The position numbers and the translations under genes are program-made. The notes under the pieces were generated by a model. The model was not told the origin of the DNA and did no database searches. It saw only the letters and a program-made list of their open reading frames with translations. From NCBI GenBank assembly GCA_029213045.1, contig JARGPN010000006.1, positions 168,123 through 232,122 on the forward strand: 64,000 bases of DNA, given 5' to 3'. This DNA comes from Alcanivoracaceae bacterium. Its GTDB lineage: Bacteria; Pseudomonadota; Gammaproteobacteria; Pseudomonadales; Alcanivoracaceae. The first letter of the stretch is position 1. The number at the start of each line of letters is the position of its first letter. Shown piece after piece: positions 4,128 through 23,946 of this stretch.

Positions 4128-4134
4128 AAAGACC

Positions 4135-4461: not shown

Positions 4462-4472
4462 GCGATTCTCAT

Positions 4473-5416: not shown

Positions 5417-6079
5417 ATGATCAAGATAATGGTGGTGGATGATCATGATCTGGTGCGCACAGGCATCAGTCGCATGCTTGCCGACGTGAACGGCATTGAC
5501 GTCATCGGTGAGGCGTCGAGTGGTGAAGACGCGGTACAAATGGCACGTGAGCTAGAGCCTGATGTGGTGTTGATGGATGTTAAAATGCCGGGCATGGGCG
5601 GCTTGGAAGCGACCAAGAAAATGCTGCGTCATGATGATGGTGTGCGCGTTATCGCGGTGACTGTTTGTGAAGAAGAGCCATTTCCCTCGCGCTTATTAAA
5701 AGCGGGAGCGTGCGGCTATCTCACAAAAGGCGCCGATTTAGATGAAATGTTGCGCGCGATTAAGATTGTCCATGCCGGTCAGCGCTACATCAGCCCGCAA
5801 ATTGCTCAGGCTATGGCGTTAAAGCCGTTTAACACCGCTGAGTCTGCACCGATGGAGTTGCTCTCCGAGCGAGAGCTGCAAATAATGATGATGATTGTGA
5901 ACTGTCATAAGGTGCAGGACATTTCAGACAAGCTTTGCCTGTCTCCAAAAACGGTTAACACTTACCGTTATCGGATTTTCGATAAGCTCGGCATTACTAG
6001 CGACGTTGAAATGACGGTGTTAGCGATGCGTTGGGGCATGGTCGACGACACCGCCGGTGCGACGGCAAGCGTTGTGTGA
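5417..6079 (+). CDS. gacA: GacA/UvrY-type response regulator (REC plus LuxR-type HTH)
   Basis: MIKIMVVDDHDLVR..., receiver Asp (VLMDVKMPGMGG) and a C-terminal LuxR HTH (LSERELQIMMMI...LSPKTVNTYR). It sits immediately upstream of uvrC, as in Pseudomonas and E. coli. I prefer the ATG at 5417 over the ORF-track start at 5381. Confidence 0.85.
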   Translation: MIKIMVVDDHDLVRTGISRMLADVNGIDVIGEASSGEDAVQMARELEPDVVLMDVKMPGMGGLEATKKMLRHDDGVRVIAVTVCEEEPFPSRLLKAGACGYLTKGADLDEMLRAIKIVHAGQRYISPQIAQAMALKPFNTAESAPMELLSERELQIMMMIVNCHKVQDISDKLCLSPKTVNTYRYRIFDKLGITSDVEMTVLAMRWGMVDDTAGATASVV

Positions 6080-6104
6080 CCAGTTGTCTGCGTAAGCACG
6101 AAAA

Positions 6105-6147
6105 AGAGTATTTAAAAGGGGGCGATAAGCCCCTTTTTTAATACTCT
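6105..6147. terminator. long hairpin / bidirectional terminator after gacA
   Basis: Near-perfect inverted repeat AGAGTATTTAAAAGGGG...CCCCTTTTTTAATACTCT. Confidence 0.55.
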
Positions 6148-6270
6148 TTATTGGGGGAGGCGCATTGTTGTCGAGGTTTGCGTAGGCGTTGCGTGTATAT
6201 ATAAGGGTTATACATGTGAACGGATGCGGTAAACTCACAACGATTTTTTCGCCAGCGCTCGGAGATTTGT

Positions 6271-8115: not shown

Positions 8116-8218
8116 AAGCGATTAAATTTGTTTTAATCCGCATCAGTTTCACGTTGAGGCGTGAGAAGCGCGCCTCATTTCGCTATACTTCCGCCTTTCG
8201 AGCCAGTAGTAGCATGCC

Positions 8219-8818
8219 ATGACAACTCAAAGCACGCGTTGGACGCTCCCAAACATTATGACATTGGCTCGGCTGTTATCCGTGCCTGTGTTCGTTGCGG
8301 TTTTTTATCTTCCCTACAAATGGGCCGGCCTTGCGGCTGCTATTATTTTCGTTATTGCGGGCATTACGGACGCTCTAGACGGTTACTTGGCTCGCCGCCT
8401 TGGACAAACGAGTCGCTTTGGCGCCTTCCTCGACCCTGTTGCAGACAAGCTTATTGTCGCCGCCGCGCTGGTTATGTTGGTGCAGCAGCACTCGAATATA
8501 TGGCTAACGCTGCCTTCAATTGTAATTATCTCCCGAGAAATTACAGTTTCTGCTCTGCGTGAGTGGATGGCAGAAATCGGCGCTCGTTCTCGTGTTGCCG
8601 TTAGCGGCATCGGCAAAATCAAAACGATCATGCAAATCGCGGCGATTACCGGGCTGCTGGCTAAAAGTCCCGTTATTACGGACACAGGTGACGTGTTGAT
8701 GACGCCATTTTTATGGCTGACCTATGGTTCCTTGTATGTGGCGACGGCGCTAACGTTGTGGTCAATGTTGGTGTATTTGCGCGCAGCGTGGCCTGAGCTG
8801 TGGTCCGTTAGGCGATAA
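8219..8818 (+). CDS. pgsA: CDP-diacylglycerol--glycerol-3-phosphate 3-phosphatidyltransferase
   Basis: 199 aa with the CDP-alcohol phosphatidyltransferase motif (DALDGYLARRLGQTSRFGAFLDPVADK). Confidence 0.9.
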   Translation: MTTQSTRWTLPNIMTLARLLSVPVFVAVFYLPYKWAGLAAAIIFVIAGITDALDGYLARRLGQTSRFGAFLDPVADKLIVAAALVMLVQQHSNIWLTLPSIVIISREITVSALREWMAEIGARSRVAVSGIGKIKTIMQIAAITGLLAKSPVITDTGDVLMTPFLWLTYGSLYVATALTLWSMLVYLRAAWPELWSVRR

Positions 8819-8853
8819 AGCGAGCAATCAGTTCGTCGTTGCTTGTTAACGGC

Positions 8854-8881
8854 TTGACACAAGGGGGGCTGGCGTTAGAAT
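8854..8881 (+). promoter_or_regulatory. candidate sigma70 promoter for the tRNA-Gly/Cys/Leu cluster
   Basis: TTGACA, a 16-nt spacer, then TAGAAT. It lies about 38 nt upstream of tRNA-Gly. Confidence 0.4.
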
Positions 8882-8919
8882 GCCTCTCCGCCGACACAGA
8901 ACACTGGTATCGGCGAATT

Positions 8920-8995
8920 GCGGGAATAGCTCAGTTGGTAGAGCGCAACCTTGCCAAGGTTGAGGTCGCGAGTTCGAACCTCGTTTCCCGCTCCA
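8920..8995 (+). tRNA. tRNA-Gly (anticodon GCC)
   Basis: Acceptor stem GCGGGAA/TTCCCGC, anticodon loop cuUGCCaa read as GCC, and an encoded CCA. Confidence 0.9.
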
Positions 8996-9002
8996 TATTT
9001 TA

Positions 9003-9028
9003 AACCTCGGTTTAACCGAGGTTTTTTA
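9003..9028 (+). terminator. hairpin plus T-run after tRNA-Gly
   Basis: AACCTCGG-ttta-ACCGAGGTT followed by a T6 run. Confidence 0.65.
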
Positions 9029-9115
9029 TTTAAACGTTACTACCAAGGCGTTTAGATAAAGGTTTCAGTATTTGCGTGATCTCACGCAAAAATGCAAACC
9101 GAAGAAAAGTGTTAA

Positions 9116-9189
9116 GGCGCGGTGGCAGAGTGGTTATGCAGCGGACTGCAACTCCGTAAACGCCGGTTCGATTCCGACCCGCGCCTCCA
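9116..9189 (+). tRNA. tRNA-Cys (anticodon GCA)
   Basis: Acceptor stem GGCGCGG/CCGCGCC, anticodon loop acTGCAac and an encoded CCA. Confidence 0.9.
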
Positions 9190-9208
9190 TCTTTAAAAGT
9201 CCTCTGAT

Positions 9209-9295
9209 GCCCGGATGGCGAAATTGGTAGACGCAAGGGACTTAAAATCCCTCGGTGGCAACACCGTGCCGGTTCGATTCCGGCTCCGGGCACCA
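9209..9295 (+). tRNA. tRNA-Leu (anticodon UAA)
   Basis: Acceptor stem GCCCGGA/TCCGGGC, anticodon loop cuTAAaa, long variable arm and an encoded CCA. Confidence 0.9.
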
Positions 9296-9470: not shown

Positions 9471-12400
9471 GTGAAGCTGATGAAATGGTTCGCAGACCTG
9501 TCTGTACGCATCAAAATTCTCTGTATCGCCGGTCTCGGGATTGGCTCTTTTGTCCTGTATTTTTTATACAGCTACTCCGTAGCTGAGAGCAATATCAGAG
9601 ACTTGCAACAGATTGAGCAAAAGGACTTCGGACTGCTTGAGGCCTCCGCGCAAAATAATATCTCCTTATTTTCCGCTCGTGATGCCTTGGCTCGAGCAAT
9701 CACTTCTGGTGATACAGACGCGTTAGGCGATGCCAATCGGTTAGCCAGCCAAGCGGTGTTAAACATGGAGGCAATGACGGAGGTCGATCCGTCATTGCGT
9801 GCTGAAGTGGATGAATTAACTGAAGCATTTCGTGCCTACTTTGACGCTGGGACCACCCTTGCCAATGATCAAATCGCAGGGAAGTTGAACGATTCCAATT
9901 TTTATGATCGATTGAATGAAGTCGCGCAGCTACGTGACGAATTCGAACAGATGCAGGAAGACTTCCAAGAAGCCCGCTACCAATCTTTTTATGATCGATT
10001 AAGCACCAGCCGGAATAATACTAAAAACGCACGTTGGGTTGGCGGCGTGGTGGTGTCTTGCGCATTACTGTTGCTCTCGTTTATCACGTTGCGGGTGACG
10101 CGCAGTATCGTTAAGCCATTGGGCTATGCGGTCGAGGTCGCGGGAAATATTGCAGACGGTGACTGGGATCGCGACATCGAAGTTAAGACGCGCGATGAAA
10201 CCGGTCGTTTGCTTAATGCAATTCGTCAAATGCGCGATGCGCTTAAGTCTCAGCGTGACACAGATCAGCGTGAAGAGCGGAAAAAGAACCGTATTGCTGA
10301 TTTAAATGAGCGCATGCGTGGCGACATGAGTTTGCAGCAACTTGGCAACAACATGCTTACCTATTTGGTGCCAGCGCTAGATGCGCAAGTAGGCGCTTTT
10401 TATATTTTTGACTCGGAATCACAAAAGCTAAAACTTAGCAGCTCCTATGCCATGCAGCGTCGCCGTAATTTGGCGAATGAGTTTGCTCTGGGTGAATCAT
10501 TGGTGGGGCAGGCGGGGCTTGAGAAGAAGCAAATTATGCTACAACAAGTTCCAGAAGATTATGTTCTGATTTCCTCTGCTACGGGCTCTTCAGTCCCCAA
10601 AAGTATCGTTGTCACTCCGATTATTCACGATGATGAATTAAAAGGCATATTGGAGATAGGCGCATTTCGTGTTTTCGAGCGAGACGATATGGAGATGCTT
10701 GAAGAGGGGGTGCGCACTGTCGCAGTAGCGGTTCATACCGCCGAGAGTCGCGTGCGATTGGCGGAAATGCTGTCGCAAACACAGCAGCAGGCTGACGCAC
10801 TAGAAACGCAGAAGTCCGAGCTCAGCGCCGTCAATGATGATCTTGAAGAACAAGCGATGGAGCTGGCCGCGTCGGAATCACGCTTGCAGCAACAACAAGA
10901 AGAGCTGCGTGCGATTAACGAAGAGTTAGAAGCCCAAGCGCATGCGCTGAGAGCATCTGAGGAAGGACTTCAGGCGCAGCAAGAAGAGTTGCGTGTCACT
11001 AACGAAGAGCTTGAAGCGCAGGCTAATTTGTTGGCTGAGCAAAAGTCCGAAATGTCTCAGAAGAACAAAGAGCTGGAGCTGCTTAAGCACGAGCTGGAAG
11101 AAAAGATTAAAGAGCTGGAACTGTCGTCTAAATACAAGTCTGAATTCCTATCCACCATGTCGCATGAGCTGCGCACGCCGCTAAACAGTATTCTGATTTT
11201 GTCTAACGCGCTGGCACAAAATAAGAAGGGCAACCTTGAAGAGAAGCAGATAGAGCATGCGCAGGTTATTCACGGTGCGGGCTCTGATTTGTTATCACTG
11301 ATTAACGACATTCTCGATATTTCAAAAATTGAAGAAGGCAAAATGGATATCATCATTGATGATATTCCAGTGATTGATTTGGCGGATCATTTCCGTAAGC
11401 ACTTCGCCCACATCGCAGAGAATCGTGGCCTTTTCTTCAAAGTAGAAGTTGCCGAAGGCTTGCCTGCTAGTCTTTATACCGATCGCCAGAGAATGGAGCA
11501 GGTTCTTAAGAATCTTCTCTCGAATGCCATGAAGTTTACGGAGAATGGCGGCGTCACTCTGCGTGTGGATATGCCGTCCGCTGATGACATCCCCGGACGT
11601 ACTTTAGAGGCTGGCAAAACGATGCGCATTTCGGTAATTGATACCGGGATTGGCATCGCTAAAGACAAGCAGAAACTGGTGTTTGAAGCTTTTCAGCAGG
11701 CGGATGGTACGACTAGCCGTAAATATGGTGGCACTGGGCTCGGACTGACTATCTCTCGTGAGTTAGCGCGCTTGTTAGGCGGTGAGCTGGGGATGTCCAG
11801 TGACGGCGCCGGCTTGGGCTGTAGCTTTATGCTGTATCTGCCTATCGGCCATGTGTCGCAGGTTTATCAAGAAGAAGGCACTGATGAATCAACGCCCGCG
11901 TTAGCCTCATTTGAAGAGAGCATTGCTGCCGCCGCAAAATCGGCCGGTGTAGAGGATGGATTTGTCGTACGCGAAAAAGCCGTCCTCATTATTGAGGACG
12001 ACGGAGACTTTGCGTCGGTACTTACAGAGCTCGCGGAAGATTATGGACTCGAGGGCCATGTATGTTCAGATGGCGAAAGTGGCCTTGAGTACGCACGAAC
12101 ATATCGTCCAAGTGCAATTATTTTAGACATTGGTTTGCCTGGCATGGACGGCTGGGAGGTGATGGACAAACTGAAGGCGGATGCCCGTACGAAAGACATT
12201 CCGGTGCATTTCCTTTCTGGAAAAGATGAACGAAAGAAAGCGATGTCCTTAGGGGCAATTGATTTTCTGACTAAGCCGGTCAATACAGATCAAATGTCCA
12301 GTGCCTTCGAGAAAATCGAAAAGGCCATAGAAAAGAACGTGCGGCGCATGTTGGTCGTTGAAGACAGTGAAATTCAACACGAAAGTATTCGGGAACTGTT

Positions 12401-13145
12401 TGATCAAAAAGGTGTGCAAATCACGTCCGTGCATACCGGTGGGGAAGCACTTGTTGCACTTCGAGATCATGTCTTTGATTGCATGATCCTAGATTTAACT
12501 TTGCCAGATATGACTGGATTCGAGTTGCTTGAAAGCATTCACGGCAACGACAATTACGACTCGGTTCCGGTAATTATCTACACTGGCAAAGAACTTAGTC
12601 GTGACGAAGAAGCTAAGCTAAGAAAATACGCAGACCGTATCATCTTGAAAACAGAGCGCTCTTCCGAGCGGCTTCTGAATGAAGCATCGCTATTTTTACA
12701 CTGGTTGGAAACAACGCTGCCCAACAACAGCAAGGGCATTCAAGATGCCATCGAACATAGGGATGATGTGTTCGAAGGTAAGTCATTGTTGTTGGTTGAT
12801 GACGATATGCGAAATATTTATGCGCTGTCAGCTCAACTAGAGGAATTAGGGTTTGCCATCACCGTCGCTAACAATGGCCGCGAAGCCTTGGAAGCGCTGG
12901 ATGAAAACCCTGAGCTGGATATTGTTCTGATGGACATCATGATGCCAGAAATGGATGGCTATGAAGCGATGTCGAAAATCCGCGAACAAAGTCGTTTTCA
13001 GAAGCTTCCAATATTGGCGCTTACCGCGAAGGCGATGAAGGATGATCGCGCTAAGTGTATCGAAGCTGGCGCAAACGACTATTGCTCGAAGCCAATTGAA
13101 ATGGGCAAGCTAACATCGCTAATGCGTGTTTGGCTGCATAAATAA
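9471..13145 (+). CDS. hybrid sensor histidine kinase: TM, helical periplasmic sensor, TM, HAMP, GAF, coiled coil, HisKA, HATPase_c and three REC domains
   Basis: 1224 aa with two hydrophobic segments. Motifs seen: HAMP (IVKPLGYAVEVAGNIADGD), GAF (VGAFYIFDSESQKLKL...GILEIGAF), H-box (SHELRTPLN), G-box (GGTGLGLTISRELARLLGG) and three receivers with DD...D...K patterns. The start is GTG at 9471 or ATG at 9480. Confidence 0.9.
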   Translation: MKLMKWFADLSVRIKILCIAGLGIGSFVLYFLYSYSVAESNIRDLQQIEQKDFGLLEASAQNNISLFSARDALARAITSGDTDALGDANRLASQAVLNMEAMTEVDPSLRAEVDELTEAFRAYFDAGTTLANDQIAGKLNDSNFYDRLNEVAQLRDEFEQMQEDFQEARYQSFYDRLSTSRNNTKNARWVGGVVVSCALLLLSFITLRVTRSIVKPLGYAVEVAGNIADGDWDRDIEVKTRDETGRLLNAIRQMRDALKSQRDTDQREERKKNRIADLNERMRGDMSLQQLGNNMLTYLVPALDAQVGAFYIFDSESQKLKLSSSYAMQRRRNLANEFALGESLVGQAGLEKKQIMLQQVPEDYVLISSATGSSVPKSIVVTPIIHDDELKGILEIGAFRVFERDDMEMLEEGVRTVAVAVHTAESRVRLAEMLSQTQQQADALETQKSELSAVNDDLEEQAMELAASESRLQQQQEELRAINEELEAQAHALRASEEGLQAQQEELRVTNEELEAQANLLAEQKSEMSQKNKELELLKHELEEKIKELELSSKYKSEFLSTMSHELRTPLNSILILSNALAQNKKGNLEEKQIEHAQVIHGAGSDLLSLINDILDISKIEEGKMDIIIDDIPVIDLADHFRKHFAHIAENRGLFFKVEVAEGLPASLYTDRQRMEQVLKNLLSNAMKFTENGGVTLRVDMPSADDIPGRTLEAGKTMRISVIDTGIGIAKDKQKLVFEAFQQADGTTSRKYGGTGLGLTISRELARLLGGELGMSSDGAGLGCSFMLYLPIGHVSQVYQEEGTDESTPALASFEESIAAAAKSAGVEDGFVVREKAVLIIEDDGDFASVLTELAEDYGLEGHVCSDGESGLEYARTYRPSAIILDIGLPGMDGWEVMDKLKADARTKDIPVHFLSGKDERKKAMSLGAIDFLTKPVNTDQMSSAFEKIEKAIEKNVRRMLVVEDSEIQHESIRELFDQKGVQITSVHTGGEALVALRDHVFDCMILDLTLPDMTGFELLESIHGNDNYDSVPVIIYTGKELSRDEEAKLRKYADRIILKTERSSERLLNEASLFLHWLETTLPNNSKGIQDAIEHRDDVFEGKSLLLVDDDMRNIYALSAQLEELGFAITVANNGREALEALDENPELDIVLMDIMMPEMDGYEAMSKIREQSRFQKLPILALTAKAMKDDRAKCIEAGANDYCSKPIEMGKLTSLMRVWLHK
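10809..11144 (+). repeat. four in-register 84-nt (28-residue) coding repeats in the kinase coiled coil
   Basis: The four units are QKSELSAVNDDLEEQAMELAASESRLQQ, QQEELRAINEELEAQAHALRASEEGLQA, QQEELRVTNEELEAQANLLAEQKSEMSQ and KNKELELLKHELEEKIKELELSSKYKSE. Positions 4, 5, 11, 12, 13 and 19 are conserved. Confidence 0.7.
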
Positions 13146-13154
13146 GGTCAGCGA

Positions 13155-14012
13155 ATGCAGCAAGAGCCGGAAATTACAGACGACGACGTCAATATCGAGG
13201 AGATCGAGATCCGCCTTCTTTTAGAGGCGATTTACTCGATGTACGGATATGATTTTCGGCGCTACAGCAAAGCTTCTATTCGTCGCCGAGTGCTGCATCG
13301 TTTAGGGCTTTCTGGATTTGGCAATATTATGCAAATGACAGACAAAGTTCTGCGAGACCGGCAGTTTTTTGTCGAGCTGCTAAATGACCTTACAGTTAAT
13401 GTCACCGAAATGTTTCGTGATCCAATGTTCTATCGGCGCTTTAGGGAAGAAGTTGTACCAGTACTAAAAACGTTTCCGTTCATAAAAATTTGGCATGCGG
13501 GCTGTTCAACAGGTGAAGAGATTTACAGCATGGCCGTCTTGCTCGAAGAGGAAGGTTTATACGAGCGGACCATGATGTATGCGACAGATATTGATAAGAA
13601 TGTTCTGGCTACGGCCAAGAAGGGAATTTATTCAATTGCCGCAATTAAGCAATACAGTGATAACTATATTCAGGCCGGCGGCAAGTCCTCTCTGTCTGAT
13701 TATTACACCTGTAAGTACGAAAGCGTCATTATGGATCAGGGGTTGAAACGGAACATCGTTTTTGCAGACCACGATCTCGCAACAGATCAAGTGTTTGGTG
13801 AGATGAACGTTATCGTTTGCCGAAATGTATTGATCTATTTTGATCGTCAATTACAAGAACGTGTATTTAACCTTTTCAGAGATAGTCTTGATTTGGGCGG
13901 ATATCTTTGCCTTGGTACAAAAGAAAGCCTCAAGTTTGCTGACGCAGATCATGGCTTTGAGCCCGTAGACGCGGAAATGAAAATATTTAGACGTAAGCAG
14001 GTGTCCCTGTGA
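13155..14012 (+). CDS. CheR-type protein-glutamate O-methyltransferase
   Basis: 285 aa with a CheR N-terminal helical domain and a SAM-binding motif (IWHAGCSTGEEIYSMAVLL, VIVCRNVLIYF). It starts 9 nt after the kinase stop. Confidence 0.85.
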   Translation: MQQEPEITDDDVNIEEIEIRLLLEAIYSMYGYDFRRYSKASIRRRVLHRLGLSGFGNIMQMTDKVLRDRQFFVELLNDLTVNVTEMFRDPMFYRRFREEVVPVLKTFPFIKIWHAGCSTGEEIYSMAVLLEEEGLYERTMMYATDIDKNVLATAKKGIYSIAAIKQYSDNYIQAGGKSSLSDYYTCKYESVIMDQGLKRNIVFADHDLATDQVFGEMNVIVCRNVLIYFDRQLQERVFNLFRDSLDLGGYLCLGTKESLKFADADHGFEPVDAEMKIFRRKQVSL

Positions 14013-14485
14013 ATGATGAAGTGATTATCCAGAATGTACTTCTGGTGGATGATCAGCCCGCCAATCTAGTTTCGCTTGAGGCGATTCTAGAGGCGGACAA
14101 TCGCGTGTTGATTAAAGCGAACTCAGGGCAGGAAGGCCTAAAAGTTTTGCTTAAAGAAGATGTATCCCTTGTGCTGCTCGACGTACAGATGCCAGGCATG
14201 GATGGTTTCGAAATGGCAGAGCTAATGCGGGCGCGGAAAGACACGCAAACAATCCCGATTATCTTTGTTACCGCTATCAGCAAAGAAAAGCAGTATGTGT
14301 TTAAAGGTTATCAAGTTGGTGCAGTAGATTATTTATTTAAGCCGTTGGATCCTGTGATTCTGCAGTCAAAAGTAAATTTCTTTTTGCAGCTGGATCGCCA
14401 ACGCCGCGAGTTGCAGTTGAAATTAAAGCAAGCGCAAGCGCATCGGGCTGCATATGAAGCAGCCAAACACAAAGACAAGAAGTAA
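14009..14485 (+). CDS. stand-alone response regulator receiver with a short C-terminal helix
   Basis: 158 aa with LLVDDQPANL, LLDVQMPGMDG and YLFKP. The GTG start overlaps the CheR stop (GTGA). Confidence 0.85.
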   Translation: MNDEVIIQNVLLVDDQPANLVSLEAILEADNRVLIKANSGQEGLKVLLKEDVSLVLLDVQMPGMDGFEMAELMRARKDTQTIPIIFVTAISKEKQYVFKGYQVGAVDYLFKPLDPVILQSKVNFFLQLDRQRRELQLKLKQAQAHRAAYEAAKHKDKK

Positions 14486-14491
14486 GTTGAT

Positions 14492-15082
14492 ATGGTGACG
14501 CGCCCGCTACGCATCAAGATTGTTGTGGTTGGCGCTTCTTGGGGCGGGATAGAAGCGGCGACTCAGATTTTCTCGGCATTGCCTGAGACGTTGCCTGTTC
14601 CCGTAGTGCTGGTTCAGCACCAGCGCATTTCGGTGCACAATCGCCTCGCAAAACTGTTTGAAACGAAAGCTAAGTTAAAAGTGGTGGCGCCAGAGCAGGG
14701 CGAGCTACTTGAGTCAGGGCGCTTGTACGTAGCGCCGCCTGGCTATCACACGATGATCGATGAGGGCGGTCACATTGCACTCGGCCTACATAGGCCCGTA
14801 CTGTATTGTCGTCCCGCGATTGATGAGCTTTTTTTTTCCGCGGGCCAAATATATGGTCGCAGCACGTTGGCAGTGTTGCTGACGGGGGCAAATGAAGATG
14901 GCGCAGCAGGTATGCGCTATATAAAACAACGCGGCGGCATGACCGTCGTACAAGATCCGGCAACGGCGGAAGCGCCTGTGATGCCGGAATCTGCGATAAA
15001 AATGGGTGGGGTTCAGCACGTTGTGCCGTTGGCAAACATGGCTGATTTTATTTGTGAGCAAGTGTTCGGTCTGCAGGAATGA
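14492..15082 (+). CDS. CheB-type methylesterase catalytic domain without a receiver
   Basis: 196 aa. Candidate catalytic residues are retained (GASWGG, VLVQHQ, TGANEDGAAG). It starts 6 nt after the preceding stop and in the same frame. Confidence 0.85.
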   Translation: MVTRPLRIKIVVVGASWGGIEAATQIFSALPETLPVPVVLVQHQRISVHNRLAKLFETKAKLKVVAPEQGELLESGRLYVAPPGYHTMIDEGGHIALGLHRPVLYCRPAIDELFFSAGQIYGRSTLAVLLTGANEDGAAGMRYIKQRGGMTVVQDPATAEAPVMPESAIKMGGVQHVVPLANMADFICEQVFGLQE

Positions 15083-16224
15083 TTAAACAAAGTATTCTCA
15101 TAGTGGATGATCATCGCGAGAATCTAATAGCGCTAGAAGCGATATTGGAGGATCCGAGCCGAAATTTAATTATGGCGTCGTCAGGGAATGAGGCGTTGCA
15201 GCTAGCGCTCAAGTACGACATCTCGCTGGTCTTGCTCGACGTTCAAATGCCGGAAATGGATGGCTTTGAAGTTGCTACGCTAATGCGTAATGGCAGAAAA
15301 ACGCGAAATGTGCCTATTATTTTCGTCACCGCAATTTCAAAAGATAGCGCCTATGTTTTCAAGGGATATGAGTGTGGCGCTGTTGATTATCTCTTTAAGC
15401 CCATCGACCAACAGATTCTGACGGCGAAAGTTGAACTGTTTCTTGAAATGGATATGCAGAAACGCAAACTGCAACAAGCCGTTGTGCAGATGAAGCGCTT
15501 AAAAGATGAGAACGAGCGTTTGTTGCGCGCAATGGGTGAGTGTGTCCTCGGCACTGACGATAAAGGTATGATCACATTCTGCAACGATGCGGCGGGATAT
15601 TTGTTCGGTCAGGAGCGCGAAGCGCTGATGGGGCAGGCGGTTGATAATTTGCTGTTCCGCGATGAAGAGCAAACTCTCCGCTGGACCTTCGCCGAGTCTC
15701 CGGTGGCGGCCAATTGCAGCTCCGGTCGTTCATGGCGCAGCGCTCAGCCGATGTTTGTGCACGGTAGCGGCGATGTGAAGTCAGTATCTGTATCGGCTAA
15801 TTCCGTGAATTTGCCCGGCGAGAACTTTTCTGGCGTTGTGATGGTCGTAAGAGATATCACTGATCAGCACGAACTCTCTGCGGAGCAGTCAGCGCGAGAA
15901 GGGCGCCGGTTCTCTCGCAAGAAAATGTTCAAAGAGATGGTGTTATTTGATCGCGGTACCGGAAGCAATATTGGTCGATTACTGAACATCAGTGTCGATG
16001 GATTTAAGCTTTTTACCCGACAAGAGCTTCAAGACGGCACTAAGTTTCAGCTAAGTGTGGTATTGCCAGAGCAGATATATGGCGTCAATACTCTGAGCTT
16101 CAACGCTCGCAATGTTTGGTCTGAAGCGCAGGACGAGCCAGGCGCCTATCACGCCGGCTTCCAGTTTGTGGATCTGAGCGATACTAATAAAAATATAATT
16201 AAAGCGCTTTTGGAGAAGTACTGA
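15079..16224 (+). CDS. response regulator with REC, PAS and PilZ domains
   Basis: 381 aa. REC ([20 protein letters not shown]), PAS-like ([25 protein letters not shown]) and C-terminal PilZ motifs RRFSR (RxxxR) and NISVDG (D/NxSxxG). The ATG overlaps the CheB stop (ATGA). Confidence 0.8.
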
Positions 16225-16226
16225 TT

Positions 16227-17741
16227 ATGGAGTTGCCAGCATTAGAGCAGGACGCTGAGCTGGATCAGCATATCGTCGTAGGACCGGAGCTTTTGCCATA
16301 TGGCTTTGCTCGCAGACATGGGGTGCTGCTGCGCAAAACTGATTCAGGAAACGAGCTCTGCTTTCGCAGCCCGCTGTCTATGCAAGTCCTTGCGGAAATT
16401 CGCCGCAATTTTTCTGTATCTGGCGCGCCTAAGAATCTTAGTGACGAAGAATTTACCTCCGTGCTCGCACTGACCTATGAGCAGCAGCGCGGTGCGGCAG
16501 CAGAAGCTGCCGACAACCTTGATGGCTTAGACCTCTCATCGCTCGCTGACGCGATGCCAGAAACCTCCGACTTGCTCGAACAAGAAGATGATGCGCCGAT
16601 TATTCGTTTGATCAACGCGTTGCTGCAAGAAGCTATCCGTGAGAATGCCTCCGATATTCACATTGAAACGTTTGAGCGTCGTTTGGTCGTTCGATTGCGT
16701 GTTGATGGTGTGTTACGCGAAGTGCTAACGCCTCGTCGTGAGTTAGCGCCATTACTCGTGTCCCGCATTAAAGTGATGGCGCGTTTGGATATCGCTGAAA
16801 AACGTCTTCCGCAAGATGGTCGTATTTCTTTGCGATTAGGCGGACGTGATGTCGATGTACGTGTATCGACAATGCCATCTAGCAACGGTGAGCGAGTGGT
16901 GCTGCGTTTGCTGGATAAGCAAGCAGGGCGATTGCAGCTTTCCCATCTTGGTATGGGCGCCGATACGCACAAATTAATGTACGAACTTATTCACAAACCG
17001 CATGGCATTATTCTCGTCACTGGCCCGACCGGTTCTGGTAAAACAACCACCTTGTATGCATCGTTGGCAGATTTAAACGACGCAACGCGAAATATTCTCA
17101 CCGTCGAAGATCCTATCGAATATCAGCTAGAAGGCATTGGTCAAACGCAAGTTAGCACTAAAGTTGATATGACATTTGCCCGCGGCTTACGCGCTATTTT
17201 GCGTCAGGATCCTGACGTTGTGATGGTTGGTGAGATTCGAGATTTAGAAACCGCTGAGATTTCTGTTCAGGCCTCATTAACCGGCCACTTGGTGCTTTCA
17301 ACATTGCACACCAACAGTGCGGTTGGCGCGGTCACGCGTTTGCAAGACATGGGCATCGAGCCGTTTTTGTTATCCTCAAGTTTGCTCGGCGTATTGGCGC
17401 AGCGATTGGTGCGCGTCCTCTGCAAGGAATGTAAAGAAGCGCATCCGGCGACAGAAAGTGAGCTGGAAATGATGGGGGTGCCGAACTCAGGCAACCAAGT
17501 TTATCGTCCTGTTGGATGTAGTCACTGTAACAACTCTGGTTATCGCGGTCGTACGGGTATTTATGAATTAGTGGTAATTACCGAGACCATGCGTGAACTT
17601 ATTCATGATCGCGCTTCTGAGCAGTCACTCGATCGAGAAGCTCGTGCATTGACGCCAAATATTCGCACAGACGGTTGGCGTAAAGTCTTGGCGGGTGACA
17701 CCAGTATTGAAGAAGTGCTTCGCGTTACCCGCGAAGGCTAA
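16227..17741 (+). CDS. gspE: type II secretion ATPase GspE
   Basis: 504 aa with N1 domain [13 protein letters not shown], Walker [10 protein letters not shown], Asp box and a tetracysteine motif (CKEC...CSHC). Confidence 0.92.
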
Positions 17742-17756
17742 TCAGGTTGATAGTTC

Positions 17757-18980
17757 ATGCCCGCGTTTGAATATCGCTCGCTCGATCATCGAGGCAAAGT
17801 CCGTAAAGGTGTGCTGGAAGCTGACAGTGCGCGTTTAGTGCGCCAGCAACTGCGCGAAAAGGGCTGGGTGCCTATTGAAGTAGGCGAAGCCAGCGATAAA
17901 AAGCAAAGCACCAACTTGATGGAAGGAATGTCCTCACGAGGGCGCCTTAAATCTGCTGAGCAGGCGTTGATAACACGCCAGTTGGCAACATTAATTCGGT
18001 CTGGTTTGCCTATCGAGCATGCGTTATCCGCAGTGGCGCGCCAATCCGGAAAAGATCGTGTTGAGCGCATCATTTTGGCCGTACGAGCTAAGGTGCTTGA
18101 AGGACATAGCTTGGCAAACAGCCTCGGTGAATTCCCGAAAGCATTTCCCGAAATGTACCGAGCTACGGTGGCGGCCGGTGAATCCAGCGGTCATTTAGAG
18201 CAAGTGCTCGATCAACTCGCAGAATATTTAGAAACCCGTCATGACACCGGTCGCTCGATCACACAAGCGATGGTGTATCCCATATTTATTATTCTTTTTT
18301 CGGTGTTGGTGATTAGCTTTCTGATGACCTACGTAGTGCCGAAAATGGTTGAGGTATTTGAAGGGCGTGGCCAAACACTGCCGATGCTAACCCAAGTCAT
18401 GATCAGCGTGAGTCATTTTTTCAGAGATTGGATGTGGCTAGTGCTGCTTATCGGCGTTGTCGGAAGCGTTTTGTTTACGCGCGCATTACGCGAACCTGCC
18501 TTTAGAATGCGCGTGCACAGAAAGTTGGCGACATTCCCGATGATCGGCACGTTATTGCGAGCTGGCGAGAGTGCACGATTAGCCAGTACCTTGGGTATTC
18601 TCGGCCGCAGTGGTGTGCCCTTGGTCGAAGCGTTAGGCATTTCAGAGCAAGTGATTGGAAATCTCGCGATTCGTGATGCGCTCAAGCAAGCGGCCAATCG
18701 CGTGCGCGAAGGCGGAAGCTTGAGCAAAGCACTGGAGCGAAGTGGTTATTTCCCGCCAATGTTGGTGCAAATGATCGCAAGCGGTGAGGCGAGCGGCGAT
18801 TTAGATCAAATGTTGACGCGCGCTGCGGATTATCAAGAACGAGATTTAAATAATACGGTTACCACGATGGTCGGTTTACTCGGACCATTAATGTTATTGC
18901 TGATGGCTGGCATTGTGGTGTTAGTGGTGCTGTCGGTTGTGCTGCCGATGCTCGACATGAATGCCATCTTTAATCGATAG
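17757..18980 (+). CDS. gspF: type II secretion inner-membrane platform protein GspF
   Basis: 407 aa with duplicated T2SSF domains, three TM segments and N-terminus MPAFEYRSLD. Confidence 0.92.
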   Translation: MPAFEYRSLDHRGKVRKGVLEADSARLVRQQLREKGWVPIEVGEASDKKQSTNLMEGMSSRGRLKSAEQALITRQLATLIRSGLPIEHALSAVARQSGKDRVERIILAVRAKVLEGHSLANSLGEFPKAFPEMYRATVAAGESSGHLEQVLDQLAEYLETRHDTGRSITQAMVYPIFIILFSVLVISFLMTYVVPKMVEVFEGRGQTLPMLTQVMISVSHFFRDWMWLVLLIGVVGSVLFTRALREPAFRMRVHRKLATFPMIGTLLRAGESARLASTLGILGRSGVPLVEALGISEQVIGNLAIRDALKQAANRVREGGSLSKALERSGYFPPMLVQMIASGEASGDLDQMLTRAADYQERDLNNTVTTMVGLLGPLMLLLMAGIVVLVVLSVVLPMLDMNAIFNR

Positions 18981-18990
18981 GGAGATAGAA

Positions 18991-19422
18991 ATGAATAAGA
19001 TCAAGGCCGCAGGGCGTCAATCAGGTTTTACCCTGCTGGAAATCATGGTCGTTGTGACGATCTTGGGTTTGCTTGCAGCATTTATTGTGCCGAATGTTAT
19101 TGGGCAGGGTGATAAAGCGAAAGTTGACCTAGCGAAAGCCAATATGAGTGGCGTGGCAAATGCGCTGGATTTTTATAAGCTCGACAACAAAAAGTATCCC
19201 ACAACAGAACAAGGGCTGGACGCGTTAACGACAAAGCCAGAAGGCGCGAAAAACTGGAACCCGAATGGCTACCTACCTAAATTGCCAGAAGATCCTTGGG
19301 GTAACACGTATGTGTATATCAGCCCCGGTATCGACGGTAAACCCTATGACCTTTACTCCTTAGGTGCGGACGGCGTAGAGGGTGGCGAGGGATTTGATGC
19401 CGATCTCAATTTCCGCGACTAA
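18991..19422 (+). CDS. gspG: major pseudopilin GspG
   Basis: Prepilin leader and cleavage motif (QSGFTLLEIMVV) and a conserved GspG core (DPWGNTYVYISPG...YSLGADG). I prefer the ATG at 18991 over 18961. Confidence 0.9.
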   Translation: MNKIKAAGRQSGFTLLEIMVVVTILGLLAAFIVPNVIGQGDKAKVDLAKANMSGVANALDFYKLDNKKYPTTEQGLDALTTKPEGAKNWNPNGYLPKLPEDPWGNTYVYISPGIDGKPYDLYSLGADGVEGGEGFDADLNFRD

Positions 19423-19993
19423 TTCGCGACGCTCTTTAGGCTTTACTCTTCTGGAAGTGCTAGTGGTGGTGACACTGCTAGCACTTTTGGCGTCTATGGT
19501 TGTGCCTATGATGGGGCGTAATACGGAAACGGAAGATTTAGATTTTCAAGCGAAACACCTCAAAGACGTCATTCAGCAGCTTGCTGAGAACAGTATGTTT
19601 CGTGGCGAATTAATGGCGTTACGATTGGATGACACTCGTTATCAACCACAGCGGTACAACATCGACGACCAAGTGTTTGAGCCAATAGTAGGCAATGATC
19701 TGTTCACAGAATTCGAGCTTCCGACGAATTATCTACTCGAATGGACGCTGACCGAGCAAGATGATCCCGGCCAGTCTTCACTTAATCAAGTCGCTGCGAA
19801 TCTTGTCACCACGCAAAATAACGTCGATAAAGACGATCTCCCACAGCTTTACTTTTTCCCCAGCGGCGAAGCAACGCCTGTAACACTTATTTTGCGCGAT
19901 GGCGAGAAAGGCGATGAAGTTAAGCTCGAACTGGATGCCGTGGGCAGAGTAGACATTCCAACAGATGAAGATGAGTTGGATGAAGACGAATAA
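19397..19993 (+). CDS. gspH: minor pseudopilin GspH
   Basis: Prepilin motif SLGFTLLEVLVV. Its position follows gspG. The first ATG is at 19397, and the ORF-track start at 19382 is GTG. Confidence 0.72.
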   Translation: MPISISATNSRRSLGFTLLEVLVVVTLLALLASMVVPMMGRNTETEDLDFQAKHLKDVIQQLAENSMFRGELMALRLDDTRYQPQRYNIDDQVFEPIVGNDLFTEFELPTNYLLEWTLTEQDDPGQSSLNQVAANLVTTQNNVDKDDLPQLYFFPSGEATPVTLILRDGEKGDEVKLELDAVGRVDIPTDEDELDEDE

Positions 19994-20435
19994 TTATTCT
20001 CAGCGCGGCTTTACTCTCATCGAAGTGCTAGTAGCAGTTGTCATCCTGTCGTTAGCAGCATTGGTGTTGGCGAACGCATTTGGCGGCAGTGCGATGGGAT
20101 TTTCTCGGATGCAAGAACGCACCGCGGCATGGTTGATTGCCAGCGACAAGCTGGTCGAACTTCAGGTTTATCAACAGTGGCCCGGTATTGGCACTCAAGA
20201 TGAAAAACGCGAGCAGAATGACGTGGAATGGAAAATACGTACACGCGTTAGCAATGGACCTTATCCAGATACTCGCAGAGTGGATATTGAAGTTGGGCCA
20301 GAACCAGAACAGGGGCAAGAGTTTTATTACGTGTATTCGCAGGGCAGCTTGCTTGGCAAACCCTTTACTGCGGGCGCAACGGGAGCCGGTGGTTCAGGGC
20401 AAGGCGAAACTGGCGGGGGCGGCAATGCAAACTGA
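19980..20435 (+). CDS. gspI: minor pseudopilin GspI
   Basis: Prepilin motif QRGFTLIEVLVAV. Alternative ATGs lie at 19965 and 19971. It has an unusual Gly-rich C-terminal tail. Confidence 0.72.
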   Translation: MKTNNYSQRGFTLIEVLVAVVILSLAALVLANAFGGSAMGFSRMQERTAAWLIASDKLVELQVYQQWPGIGTQDEKREQNDVEWKIRTRVSNGPYPDTRRVDIEVGPEPEQGQEFYYVYSQGSLLGKPFTAGATGAGGSGQGETGGGGNAN

Positions 20436-21078
20436 TAGGCTCCTTATAGCGTCTCCTCAAAGGGGCTTCACGCTGTTAGAAGTGTTGATTGCCATCGCAA
20501 TATTTGCGGGTATTTTTTTGGCCGCACAACAAATGTTTAGCCAAGCGGTGCAGAATCGTGATCGCTTGGAGCTTGAAGCGGCGCGCATGGAATCACAGCA
20601 ACTGCTATTAACATGGCTCACCCTAGATTTCGAACAAATCGTGGCGCGGCCAGTGCGAGATGGACTGGGCACTGAGCTTCCTGCGGTCATGAGTCTTGAT
20701 CGTGGCGTTGCATTGACCCGCAATGGATGGGCCAATCCATTTGCATTGCGTCAGCGTAGCGAGCTTCAGCGAGTAGAGTATTTTTTAAATGATGATCAAG
20801 AATTGATTCGCCGCTACTGGCCTGCGCTAGATGTGAACCAAGGTACCGTGCCGGTTGAGCTCGTTATGATCAAAGACGTGGAAGACTTTCAGGTTCGTTA
20901 TTTGAGCGAGGCGAATAAAGGGCAGTACGAATGGATGACGCTTTGGCCTGCGCCGGCGCAATCCGGGTTAGCGCCAATCACGCAGCCGTTACCAAAAAGT
21001 ATTGAGGTAAATATATTTTTAGAATCAGGCGAAGTGGTGCATCGATTTTTTAGAACGGTGGCGAACCCATGGCATTAA
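20425..21078 (+). CDS. gspJ: minor pseudopilin GspJ
   Basis: Prepilin motif QRGFTLLEVLIAIAIF follows the internal ATG at 20425. The 96 upstream codons of the ORF overlap gspI and are probably not translated. Confidence 0.75.
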   Translation: MQTDRLLIASPQRGFTLLEVLIAIAIFAGIFLAAQQMFSQAVQNRDRLELEAARMESQQLLLTWLTLDFEQIVARPVRDGLGTELPAVMSLDRGVALTRNGWANPFALRQRSELQRVEYFLNDDQELIRRYWPALDVNQGTVPVELVMIKDVEDFQVRYLSEANKGQYEWMTLWPAPAQSGLAPITQPLPKSIEVNIFLESGEVVHRFFRTVANPWH

Positions 21079-22241
21079 GAACTCAGCCGCAGCCTGCGAT
21101 GAGAATAAAGGCGCTATCACGGAAAAAAACGCATCAACAGGGTTCCGCGTTGGTGGTTGTGCTGTTGATTTTTGCGTTGGCTTATTCGCTGGCTGTTGAA
21201 GTCATCTATCGTCAAGACCATGTGCAAACGCGCACCGCGAATTTATTAGATTGGGATTATCGTTATCAATATGCCATTGCCGCGGAAACACTCGCGATAC
21301 AGGGACTCATCGACGATTTAGAAGATGATCAACGCAATAATGAGATTATGGATGATTGCGTCACGGAAAAGTGGGCGGGTCCATTTTCTTTTCCCTATGA
21401 CGACGCCATCATTAGTGCGTCTGTCCAGGATTTGCAGGGCCGCTTCAACGTCAACGCCCTCATGGAATCTAATCAAAGTACCGGCCAGTTCAGTCGTGAT
21501 CAAAATATGATGCCGCGCTTTCAAACATTACTTTCGTCAGTATTGCCGTCAACACACACAAGTTACGCTGCAGGCTTGGCCAATCAAATGGCAGACTGGA
21601 TCGACACAGACAATTTGGTCAACGGCGCCGACGGTGCAGAAGATGCGGAATACCTTTATTCGCGAACGCCGAATCACCCCATTATGGATGAAAGCGAGAT
21701 GCGGGCGCTCTTTAGTTTTGATGAATCATTAGCGTCTGAGATCAACAAAGCGCAACGCCAAGCGCCGAATAATGCTACCGCTAGTACGACAGGGCAGCCA
21801 ATGAAGCCAGCGCCGCGGTTTATGTCTTATTTCACCGCGCTACCGCTTTTTGATTTGAGCGGAGCCGTGCCAGGGCCGCCAAAGCTAAATGTGAACACAG
21901 CGCCGCAGGCGGTATTGGAAGCGTATTTCTCGCTCTACGGCGCACAAGCAGCGGCGGCGACAATTGTGCAAGACCGTGCAAAGCAGCCCTATTTACAGGT
22001 GGCGGATGTATTGGCGTTGTCAGACTTCAGCAAATTGACGGTTGCGCAGAGGCCTGAACTCGAAAGTAGACTGAGCGTCAGCACTGAGTATTTTCAGGTA
22101 GTAATCGATGTTGGAATGGAGTCCGGAGTGAGTCGCTTGGTTACCCGTATCCAGCGACAAGCGCAGGGGGAAACACGAGTTATTTCTAGGGCCCTGATGC
22201 CAGTGCTTGAACCACTCGAACCTGCCTGCAATCCTGATTAG
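21069..22241 (+). CDS. gspK: minor pseudopilin GspK
   Basis: 390 aa with an N-terminal hydrophobic segment (QQGSALVVVLLIF) lacking Glu+5, which is typical of GspK. Its position lies between gspJ and gspL. An alternative start is at 21099. Confidence 0.72.
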   Translation: MALRTQPQPAMRIKALSRKKTHQQGSALVVVLLIFALAYSLAVEVIYRQDHVQTRTANLLDWDYRYQYAIAAETLAIQGLIDDLEDDQRNNEIMDDCVTEKWAGPFSFPYDDAIISASVQDLQGRFNVNALMESNQSTGQFSRDQNMMPRFQTLLSSVLPSTHTSYAAGLANQMADWIDTDNLVNGADGAEDAEYLYSRTPNHPIMDESEMRALFSFDESLASEINKAQRQAPNNATASTTGQPMKPAPRFMSYFTALPLFDLSGAVPGPPKLNVNTAPQAVLEAYFSLYGAQAAAATIVQDRAKQPYLQVADVLALSDFSKLTVAQRPELESRLSVSTEYFQVVIDVGMESGVSRLVTRIQRQAQGETRVISRALMPVLEPLEPACNPD

Positions 22242-22273
22242 AATGGACCGCAGCTAAAAATAAGGAAAATAAA

Positions 22274-23419
22274 GTGTCTGATCCCATTTTGCTCAAATTT
22301 TCGCCAGGGGCGTTGCGCGCCGAGCGCGGACACCTGGATGTGAGCTGGCAGCGACCAGATGGCAGTGTTGGTGCAGGGCCTCTGTCGTCCTTTGTACAGG
22401 ACAATCAACGTCAGGCGGTAGGAATCGTGCTGTCCGCTGCCGATGTGCAAATCACCTCGGTCGAGCTGAGTCGTCGACAAGCGCGGCATTTGCAGAAAGT
22501 GCTGCCATTTTTGCTCGAGGAGCAGCTTATTGGCGACCCGGAGACCCTGTGGTATGCCTCTGCGGGACTCCACGATGGCCGATACCCTGTTTTAGTCTGC
22601 GACCGGTTACAGCTGACCAGTCTCGTTGACGAGTTAGAGCAGGCGGGCGTGAATGTTGTTGGCGCTGCGGTTGATGCTCAGTTGGTAGCCTCTGCCGCGC
22701 CGATTCTTTATAGCGCTGACGGTTCAACGCTATTGGTGCAGTCTGCGGATCAGGTGCTGTGTCTGCCCACCGAGGAAGTACAGACAACGTGTGAAGCGCT
22801 GGGGTTGGATATCGCAGAGTACGAGCAACTCGATGAAAGCTCGATATGGGACGCGCTCCGGCAAGGATGGAAGCGTCGCTCAGAGTTGTTGCATTCTGAA
22901 TTGCGTCCCCAGGGAAATAACGAGAATCAGGTGTTTAGGTTGCCAGCCGCATGGCGGCAATTTGCTGGATTAGCAGCATCGTTGTTGGTGGTGATTTGGG
23001 CGTTGGCTTGGACTCAAGCATGGCAATATTCTCGTCTTGGCGAGCAAACACGAGAGCAGGCGGCGGACCTCTATAAATCGCTTTTTCCAGGTGATCGCGC
23101 CACGGCAAAACTGCAAGGACAGTTTAAAAACAGGCTTGCACAGCTCGGCGGTGGGGCCGCAGGGGGAGGATCATTTCTTTCCCTTATGACGCCCGTTGCG
23201 GATGCACTGGCGTCGATGAAATCCAGCGGCGTGGCTCCCAAGCGCTTAATGTTTGAAGAGCGTGATGGTTTGCTAATGTTAGATCTAGAAGCCAAAGACT
23301 ATGAGGGTCTTGAAGCGCTTCGTGGAAGTTTGCAATCTGCGGGTCTTAGCGCAGAGATCGCCAACTTTAGAAACCAAGGCGATCAGGTCGCCGCTCGGAT
23401 GAAGGTGGCCGCACAATGA
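22274..23419 (+). CDS. gspL: type II secretion protein GspL
   Basis: 381 aa with a cytoplasmic actin-like domain (LPFLLEEQLIGDPETL), one TM segment and a periplasmic domain. GTG start with an AAGGAA Shine-Dalgarno sequence. Confidence 0.8.
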   Translation: MSDPILLKFSPGALRAERGHLDVSWQRPDGSVGAGPLSSFVQDNQRQAVGIVLSAADVQITSVELSRRQARHLQKVLPFLLEEQLIGDPETLWYASAGLHDGRYPVLVCDRLQLTSLVDELEQAGVNVVGAAVDAQLVASAAPILYSADGSTLLVQSADQVLCLPTEEVQTTCEALGLDIAEYEQLDESSIWDALRQGWKRRSELLHSELRPQGNNENQVFRLPAAWRQFAGLAASLLVVIWALAWTQAWQYSRLGEQTREQAADLYKSLFPGDRATAKLQGQFKNRLAQLGGGAAGGGSFLSLMTPVADALASMKSSGVAPKRLMFEERDGLLMLDLEAKDYEGLEALRGSLQSAGLSAEIANFRNQGDQVAARMKVAAQ

Positions 23420-23946
23420 ACCAGAAAATACTGGAGCTTCGCGAGGAAGCCGAGAAACAGTTAAAGCCTGCGTTGGATTGGTATCAAGCGCGCGAGCCGC
23501 GCGAACAGCTAGTGCTTCGAGCGCTAGCGGGCACCATTGCGTTACTAATGGTGGTAACACTAATTTGGATGCCGGCATGGCAAGTGCGCGATAACGAAAT
23601 CTCTGAGTGGCAGGCGCAAGCAAAACTCTTAGCGTGGATGCAAAGTAACGAATCAACTATCCGTCAAAGGCAATCTTCCACGGGCCAAAAACGTGTGGGC
23701 TCTTCGGGTGATTGGATCGCTGGCTTGACTCGTTCTGCCTCGGGCGCGGCAGTGACATTAAAAAGTTACAATCCTGAAGGCGAGGACTCGGCGCGCATTC
23801 AATTAGAAAACCAAGCATTTTCCGCCACATATCTTTGGCTACAACAATTGTCAGAAGACGGCATTCAAGTTGTCAGCGCTGAGTTTATGCCCGGTAGTGA
23901 GCCGGGGCGAATTAATTTAAGGGCAACATTGAGACGCGGTCTTTGA
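23416..23946 (+). CDS. gspM: type II secretion protein GspM
   Basis: 176 aa with a single N-terminal TM segment. It overlaps the gspL stop (ATGA). Size and position are typical. Confidence 0.75.
   Translation: MNQKILELREEAEKQLKPALDWYQAREPREQLVLRALAGTIALLMVVTLIWMPAWQVRDNEISEWQAQAKLLAWMQSNESTIRQRQSSTGQKRVGSSGDWIAGLTRSASGAAVTLKSYNPEGEDSARIQLENQAFSATYLWLQQLSEDGIQVVSAEFMPGSEPGRINLRATLRRGL

Follow-up and report, generated by a model that had tools for sequence, protein, structure and literature searches.

What does a CheR/CheB pair of adaptation enzymes act on when it is encoded inside a two-component operon? This question is raised by a 64,000-nucleotide stretch of an Alcanivoracaceae genome (assembly GCA_029213045.1, contig JARGPN010000006.1, positions 168,123 to 232,122; hereafter the window). 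Here, five genes of the plus strand encode a hybrid sensor histidine kinase, a CheR-like protein, a stand-alone receiver (REC), a receiver-less CheB-like protein and a REC-PAS-PilZ output protein, with junctions of +9, -4, +6 and -4 nt by open reading frame (ORF) coordinates (Table 1). An identical locus is contained in SRA run SRR23604820.

A preliminary description of this DNA, made from the sequence alone, had delimited the five packed genes, assigned their domains, suggested a Pfam search and a comparison of gene order as checks, and proposed that the kinase itself is the methylation substrate. The ORFs and junctions were borne out exactly by the coordinates, and every domain call, in all five genes, was returned by Pfam. 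The proposed substrate appears likely as well, judging by the linkage of CheR and kinase genes across phyla, the lack of recurrent MCPsignal, CheW or Hpt families in the flanks and the conserved glutamate (EE) pairs of the kinase. On the other hand, the statement that no functional description of such a neighbourhood was known did not hold, as methylation of Bacillus cereus RsbK by RsbM has been described (PMC4574943).

The operon as an RsbK-type module

RsbK of B. cereus is a hybrid kinase of the architecture CHASE3-HAMP-GAF-S-helix-HK-CA-REC. Its S-helix is methylated by RsbM, a CheR-type protein encoded in the same operon, as was established by in vitro labelling with 14C-S-adenosylmethionine (SAM) and by genetics; loss of RsbM results in constitutive sigma-B activity (PMC4574943). 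A phosphorelay was disfavoured for RsbK because no Hpt is present, the fused receiver was assigned an inhibitory role, and RsbM was called an orphan without a cognate esterase (PMC4574943). The same paper cites 127 RsbK-like kinases from 10 phyla, and PMC12848376 cites de Been and colleagues as having found the genomic association of RsbK with CheR. The window operon is an RsbK-type module, whose principle is thus already established in B. cereus. A 2011 review by de Been et al. is said to have proposed methylation and demethylation in the pre-H-box helix of RsbK homologues. In the literature we found no description of a member that has its own CheB or comes from a proteobacterium, nor of a connection with PilZ proteins or type II secretion.

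The gene order of the window is widely conserved. A search from the CheR side allowed the comparison of 80 loci, ~55 from Alcanivoracaceae and ~25 distant ones from at least 8 phyla. In the ~55 Alcanivoracaceae loci the order is kinase, CheR, REC, CheB, REC-PAS-PilZ and GspE, save that one locus of a metagenome-assembled genome (MAG; L050) has no stand-alone receiver. As this order recurs so often, and the core of the module is found in other phyla as well, the arrangement is not a product of chance.

The closest match of the window CheR, from an Alcanivoracaceae MAG, is 91% identical, and the kinase-linked CheRs of other phyla are 45-59% identical. CheRs in this range of identity were seen in Desulfobacterales, Bacteroidales, Clostridia, Chloroflexota, Myxococcota, Legionellales, Alphaproteobacteria, Rickettsiales, Ignavibacteria and an Endozoicomonas-like genome. 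The distant CheRs are in most cases encoded directly after a HAMP-GAF-coil-HisKA-HATPase-three-receiver kinase, and most distant modules continue with a receiver-less CheB and then an output protein of the REC-GGDEF, REC-PAS-GGDEF-EAL or REC-(PAS)-HK type. The flanking genes are unrelated between 19 distant loci, in which the module is the sole conserved unit; neither MCPsignal nor CheW nor Hpt is among the families that recur (in at least two ORFs) in the 116 flanking ORFs that were otherwise unclassified.

The linkage is also seen from the side of the kinase. Five matches of a coil-plus-DHp profile, built from 15 kinases, were inspected on long contigs: CheR adjoins the kinase in four of them, three of which (L083, L084, L086) have CheB too.

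Among the Bacilli, a Paenibacillus locus (L082; GCA_042685925.1, 6936-14941) encodes a kinase with a 4HB_MCP_1 sensor, HisKA, HATPase and three receivers. Next come genes for a CheR with 45% identity to that of the window, a REC-HK-REC protein, an RsbV-like STAS protein and an RsbW-like HATPase_c_2 protein, and then sigma-factor genes; numerous frameshifts interrupt the genes from the kinase and CheR onwards, probably through an assembly error. By these sequence comparisons, kinases that Bacilli encode near partner-switching genes of the sigma-B type fall into the same family as the window kinase. Among the Pfam-scanned ORFs of the window itself, STAS, anti-sigma and PP2C families had no match.

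Candidate methylation sites in the kinase coil

The segment between the GAF domain and the H-box of the window kinase is a long coiled coil, in which the candidate methyl-accepting glutamates are located. The kinases of 16 distant loci, when anchored at the phospho-acceptor His, align without gaps over the last ~95 residues, and have the motif Lq.QqEEL.v.NEELEe in common, twice and in a fixed register to this His. The EE positions have an information content of 3-4 bits, equal to or higher than that of the other coil positions. In the window kinase the pairs are E477/478, E484/485, E505/506 and E512/513, lying 88, 81, 60 and 53 residues upstream of His565, respectively, with an additional pair, E497/498, at 68 residues. 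Within each unit the pairs are spaced by seven residues and therefore share one face of the helix; with Leu placed at a, our heptad assignment puts them at f and g, which are exposed. The Paenibacillus kinase mentioned above has the motif in the same register, with its unit beginning 65 residues before the His.

This motif is specific to the family. A regular expression detected at least two copies in 63 of 68 CheR-adjacent kinases, and not a single copy in the 24 HisKA proteins that these loci also contain or in 2955 further ORFs. The sole sampled kinase with neither CheR nor CheB within 7 kb (L085, 7001-7684) has degraded pairs, i.e. QDEL, NDRL and QEQL. Though a sample of one, it is suggestive of an EE motif that is maintained by the enzymes. 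Based on these observations, we infer that glutamates of these pairs are the probable methylation sites of the window kinase.

The coil was also considered as a cryptic MCP (methyl-accepting chemotaxis protein) domain, which was rejected, as Pfam at E<=10 yields generic coiled-coil matches alone and no MCPsignal. A protein search with 70 aa of the coil alone, aimed at CheB-CheR fusion proteins with the motif, gave 5 matches.

The CheR-like and CheB-like enzymes

The window CheB matches the full CheB_methylest model of Pfam (1-174 of 174) and has no receiver. The preliminary description had pointed to candidate Ser, His and Asp residues in GASWGG, VQHQ and NEDG. These residues (Ser16, His43 and Asp136) align to Ser164, His190 and Asp286 of Salmonella CheB and are invariant, or gapped in one sequence, among 69 homologues, i.e. 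the triad is intact. In CheR, the motifs AGCSTGEE and CRNVLIYF are conserved among 75 homologues. In view of this conservation of catalytic residues, both enzymes are predicted to be active.

Both proteins score low as chemotaxis enzymes. CheR obtained 91.5 bits against the NCBIfam chemotaxis CheR equivalog (cut-off 435) and only 65-117 bits against solved chemotaxis CheRs, and CheB obtained 142.6 bits against the NCBI chemotaxis equivalog (cut-off 293), with a match that spans the catalytic half alone. A search with the window CheR gave at least 8000 matches at E<=1e-20, not all of them kinase-linked; with a Clostridial CheR as query, chosen to reach RsbM of B. cereus, the best 120 matches were all at least 59% identical, and none was from Bacillus. 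By its identities and scores, the window CheR belongs to a distinct, cross-phylum, kinase-linked clade.

The preliminary description had also stated that no CheA, CheW, MCP or Hpt is visible in the 64 kb, and our searches agree with this. Of the window's 49 ORFs of 100 aa or more, 36 were scanned with Pfam and gave no match to MCPsignal, CheW, CheA or Hpt; the other 13 were called housekeeping by eye (serS, cysG, uvrC, pgsA, gspF, metH, pntAB, prc and others). With sequences of the E. coli Tar signalling domain and CheW as phmmer queries, neither an MCP signalling domain nor CheW was matched at E<=10 among 210 window ORFs, and the MCP hairpin-tip motif occurs in none of the six frames of the window. 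The evidence for a lack of Hpt is good, though short of exhaustive, as 13 ORFs were judged by eye and ORFs under 100 aa lay outside the Pfam scan.

Kinase sensor, receivers and output protein

The kinase consists of a first transmembrane segment, a periplasmic helical sensor of ~150 aa, a second transmembrane segment (both segments assigned by eye), HAMP, GAF, coiled coil, HisKA, HATPase and three receivers. The public gene call places its start at ATG 9480, which gives 1221 aa and leaves the conclusions unaffected. The sensor has a sub-threshold Pfam match to TarH (E=0.023). A CHASE3 sensor, as in RsbK, was looked for and discarded, there being no Pfam match at E<=10. The sensor is variable within the family, as homologous kinases carry CHASE3 (L064), dCache_1 (L052, L071), 4HB_MCP_1 (L082) or no detected sensor domain.

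According to CheY alignment, the acceptor Asp is kept in all five receivers of the operon, i.e. at positions 886, 1008 and 1155 of the kinase, 58 of the stand-alone receiver and 54 of the output protein. The second kinase receiver (12357-12720, aa ~963-1083) retains Asp1008, but Thr replaces the conserved Lys (K109 in CheY), and this domain may be degenerate or purely regulatory.

The stand-alone receiver is 62% identical to the receiver of the output protein and is PleD-like, not CheB-like. It is missing from the distant loci and from L050 (about 9968-12581), which has no such gene between CheR and CheB. The high identity to the output receiver, together with this absence in L050, indicates a clade-specific duplicate that arose within the family. 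A split-off regulatory domain of CheB was considered as another origin and ruled out by the identity to the output receiver, the likeness to PleD and the patchy presence.

The output protein is composed of REC, PAS (aa 145-260) and PilZ (aa 276-379) domains, the last with a Pfam score of 34 bits (cut-off 22.5). Its PilZ domain contains RRFSR (RxxxR) and NISVDG ([DN]xSxxG), with the key positions conserved among 53 orthologues, and on account of these motifs the protein probably binds cyclic di-GMP (c-di-GMP). No sequence similarity was detected between this domain and MapZ or any PilZ of solved structure. Its target may be one of two proteins encoded close by, GspE or CheR; GspE is a candidate in view of a conserved 2-nt junction (see below) and of precedents of the PilZ-PilB type. 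A second c-di-GMP component, a 1339-aa PilZ-DUF1631-GGDEF-EAL protein, is encoded ~28 kb from the operon (44837-48856).

Type II secretion genes

The preliminary description did not mention that the operon continues: gspE begins 2 nt past the REC-PAS-PilZ gene, in the same direction, and is followed by further genes of a type II secretion system (T2SS) up to gspM. GspE scores 715 bits against the NCBIfam equivalog cut-off of 630. In every Alcanivoracaceae locus long enough to show it, gspE likewise comes next after the output gene. No convincing intrinsic terminator or strong promoter was found between the fifth gene and gspE, and no gspC or gspD (secretin) gene was found in the 64-kb window. 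A 429-aa ORF (23943-25232), with a signal-peptide-like N-terminus and no Pfam match, overlaps the gspM stop by 4 nt and could encode a T2SS accessory protein or substrate.

Proposed mechanism and alternatives

Taking together the RsbK precedent, the two-way synteny across phyla, the family-specific EE motif and the intact active sites, we think that the coil of the kinase is probably the substrate of both the CheR-like and the CheB-like enzyme. We hypothesize that the membrane hybrid kinase would sense a periplasmic or GAF-bound signal, which would travel via HAMP, GAF and the long dimeric coiled coil to His565 of the DHp domain. The CheR-like enzyme would methylate glutamates of the QQEELxxxNEELE pairs, and the receiver-less CheB-like enzyme would demethylate them. 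The level of methylation would set the bias of the kinase, and the output would adapt if the two enzymes prefer opposite signalling states. As no Hpt is present, phosphate would most likely pass directly from His565 to the separate receivers, at Asp58 and Asp54, and the three fused receivers would serve, by analogy with the RsbK receiver, as intramolecular inhibitors or phosphate sinks. The REC-PAS-PilZ protein would combine phosphorylation with c-di-GMP binding and would act on the downstream T2SS or feed back on CheR.

Several points weigh against this interpretation. The substrate and its sites in the window kinase are deduced from sequence, and the one member of the family studied by experiment, RsbK, has no paired CheB. 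The coil has no homology to the MCP signalling domain that Pfam can detect at E<=10, and the contexts of its EE pairs fit only in part the MCP methylation consensus (EExxA[ST]). The window kinase differs from RsbK, a one-receiver kinase, in having no detectable CHASE3 and in carrying three receivers. With no receiver on its CheB, the module offers no obvious route for phospho-feedback; genuine adaptation is therefore uncertain and would depend on the enzymes preferring particular conformations of the coil. The suggested link to the T2SS rests solely on conserved gene order and the 2-nt junction. Furthermore, some Alcanivorax relatives carry chemotaxis genes (PMC5174103), and the absence of MCPs reported here covers the 64-kb window.

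The last point bears on the possibility that CheR and CheB are orphan adaptation enzymes for flagellar or Pil-Chp MCPs encoded elsewhere, merely co-transcribed with the two-component system; kinase signalling and the methylation of chemoreceptors would thereby be coupled. Both proteins give strong matches to Pfam families of chemotaxis, and among solved structures their best relatives are genuine chemotaxis enzymes. In addition, the search for MCPs was confined to the window, and che, pil and ompS chemotaxis-related genes have been reported in Alcanivorax genomes (PMC5174103). Nevertheless, we regard this explanation as quite unlikely. In loci of many phyla the enzymes are linked to the same type of kinase, and neither MCP nor CheW recurs in the vicinity; the enzymes also form a cross-phylum clade well under the NCBI chemotaxis equivalog cut-offs. 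The window CheB lacks the receiver that couples CheB to CheA, the kinase has its conserved, family-specific EE motif, and RsbM acts on RsbK, not on MCPs (PMC4574943). A substrate other than the coil might also be sought among the products of the operon, which encodes five receivers with acidic pockets. CheR of Salmonella methylates PhoP at E8/D9 and E107/E108 (PMC8546571), and the fused, stand-alone or output receivers could be modified in a similar manner. This seems very unlikely to us, as the sole experimentally studied system of the family has S-helix methylation (PMC4574943), the EE motif of the coil tracks the presence of CheR and CheB, and the separate receivers vary in number and type between loci while the coil motif is constant.

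The remaining alternative is about the output alone and leaves room for the kinase coil as the substrate. In Pseudomonas aeruginosa, MapZ with bound c-di-GMP binds and inhibits CheR1 (PMC7288161). If the window PilZ protein were to act similarly, c-di-GMP would inhibit CheR and hence the methylation of the kinase, in a second-messenger feedback loop directed at CheR and not at the T2SS. PDB entries 5xly and 5y4r are among the matches of the window CheR, and homologous modules often end in REC-GGDEF or REC-GGDEF-EAL, which ties the family to c-di-GMP. On the other hand, the lack of detectable similarity of the PilZ domain to MapZ or a solved PilZ speaks against such a role, and the conserved 2-nt gspE junction suggests another partner, namely the secretion ATPase; we regard the MapZ-like loop as unlikely.

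Returning to methylation of the kinase coil, its most far-reaching form would be a complete reversible adaptation circuit, with CheR and a constitutively active CheB acting on the kinase helix and with the REC-PAS-PilZ protein gating GspE through phosphorylation and c-di-GMP. As a whole this is a tentative and rather doubtful proposal; if true, it would place protein secretion under chemotaxis-style adaptive control.

Feature coordinates and neighbouring genes

Table 1. Features of the RsbK-type operon and of the adjoining secretion genes (positions in the window).
Feature	Position	Strand	Details or basis
Hybrid sensor histidine kinase	9471..13145	+	1224 aa
HAMP (aa 209-259) and GAF (aa 286-422) of the kinase	10095..10736	+	Pfam
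Coiled coil / signalling helix (aa ~430-555), GAF to H-box	10758..11135	+	~125 residues, repeats of ~28 residues
Candidate methyl-accepting sites, two QQEELxxxNEELE units	10878..11018	+	Motif conservation; methylation inferred
HisKA (aa 556-623, phospho-acceptor His565) and HATPase_c (aa 671-792)	11136..11846	+	Pfam
Three C-terminal kinase receivers, Asp886, Asp1008, Asp1155	11958..13142	+	Pfam, three Response_reg stretches; CheY alignment
CheR-type SAM-dependent protein-glutamate methyltransferase	13155..14012	+	Pfam CheR_N + CheR
Stand-alone receiver	14009..14485	+	158 aa, Asp58, Pfam Response_reg
Receiver-less CheB-type methylesterase/deamidase catalytic domain	14492..15082	+	Pfam CheB_methylest
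Output protein REC-PAS-PilZ	15079..16224	+	Pfam
gspE, F, G, H, I, J, K, L, M (type II secretion)	16227..23946	+	Pfam/NCBIfam, gene call

Directly upstream of the kinase (5381-9295) a gacA-like REC-GerE regulator gene, uvrC, pgsA and tRNA-Gly/Cys/Leu genes form a classical arrangement. Three adjacent small ORFs of the minus strand (3828-4847; 99, 108 and 124 aa), of which the last alone matches DsrE/DsrF, probably represent a tusBCD/dsrEFH-like sulfur relay. A 682-aa protein (27690-29738) has a C-terminal PEP-utilising mobile domain as its sole Pfam match. The literature on A. borkumensis locus tags around ABO_1310 yielded a single transcriptomics mention.

Significance

CheR-type methylation of a kinase signalling helix has been shown solely for RsbK of B. 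cereus, and that kinase lacks a partner esterase; modules with both enzymes, like the window operon, occur in many phyla. If the EE pairs are real methylation sites, ordinary two-component systems could adapt like chemoreceptors. This idea is directly testable, as the candidate sites are defined, namely the four pairs of the two motif units. Alcanivoracaceae are major marine oil degraders, and the combination of PilZ and gspE-M hints at post-translational control of secretion, which would be relevant to growth at the oil-water interface.

Comparison with known systems

The closest known relative of the window operon is the RsbK-RsbM-RsbY system, compared here through the published description of B. 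cereus RsbK and not by sequence alignment. Both have a hybrid kinase with HAMP-GAF, S-helix, HisKA/HATPase and C-terminal REC, an adjoining CheR-type gene and no Hpt. The window module is distinguished by its three fused receivers, by a cognate receiver-less CheB, where RsbM has no esterase, and by a much longer coil with repeated EE units. Its output is a REC-PAS-PilZ protein coupled to gspE-M, in contrast to the REC-PP2C protein RsbY, which operates with partner switching. Moreover, the window module is gammaproteobacterial, i.e. from a Gram-negative host.

With canonical chemosensory systems the operon shares the enzyme families (CheR_N and CheR, and the CheB triad), presumably the reversible methyl-esterification of Glu at heptad-spaced acidic pairs of a dimeric coiled coil, and an expected role in resetting the kinase output. 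Unlike these systems, it has no MCP signalling domain, CheA or CheW, its CheB carries no receiver, its enzymes fall far below the equivalog cut-offs, and the putative substrate helix is fused directly to the DHp/CA kinase.

The Wsp system, one of the alternative-cellular-function chemosensory systems with c-di-GMP output, is similar in that methylation-tuned signalling feeds into a receiver-coupled c-di-GMP component, and homologues of the window module end in REC-GGDEF. Wsp consists of the MCP WspA, CheW proteins, the CheA WspE and the receiver-containing CheB WspF (PMC5812489), whereas none of these types of component is present in the window operon.

Two known PilZ systems resemble the output side of the operon. 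MapZ of P. aeruginosa has CheR1 as its partner, and the window PilZ, with canonical c-di-GMP motifs, is encoded beside a CheR. In the PilZ-FimX-PilB system of Xanthomonas a PilZ adaptor is partnered with a PilB-type ATPase, and the window PilZ is encoded beside an ATPase of the PilB/GspE family. In contrast to these adaptors, the window PilZ is fused to REC and PAS domains and has, as noted above, no detectable similarity to solved PilZ proteins.

Finally, in CheB-CheR-PAS-histidine-kinase fusions the adaptation enzymes are joined to a kinase without an MCP, and their linkers reportedly contain EELQxxNEEL-like repeats. In the window operon, the corresponding enzymes are encoded separately from the kinase.

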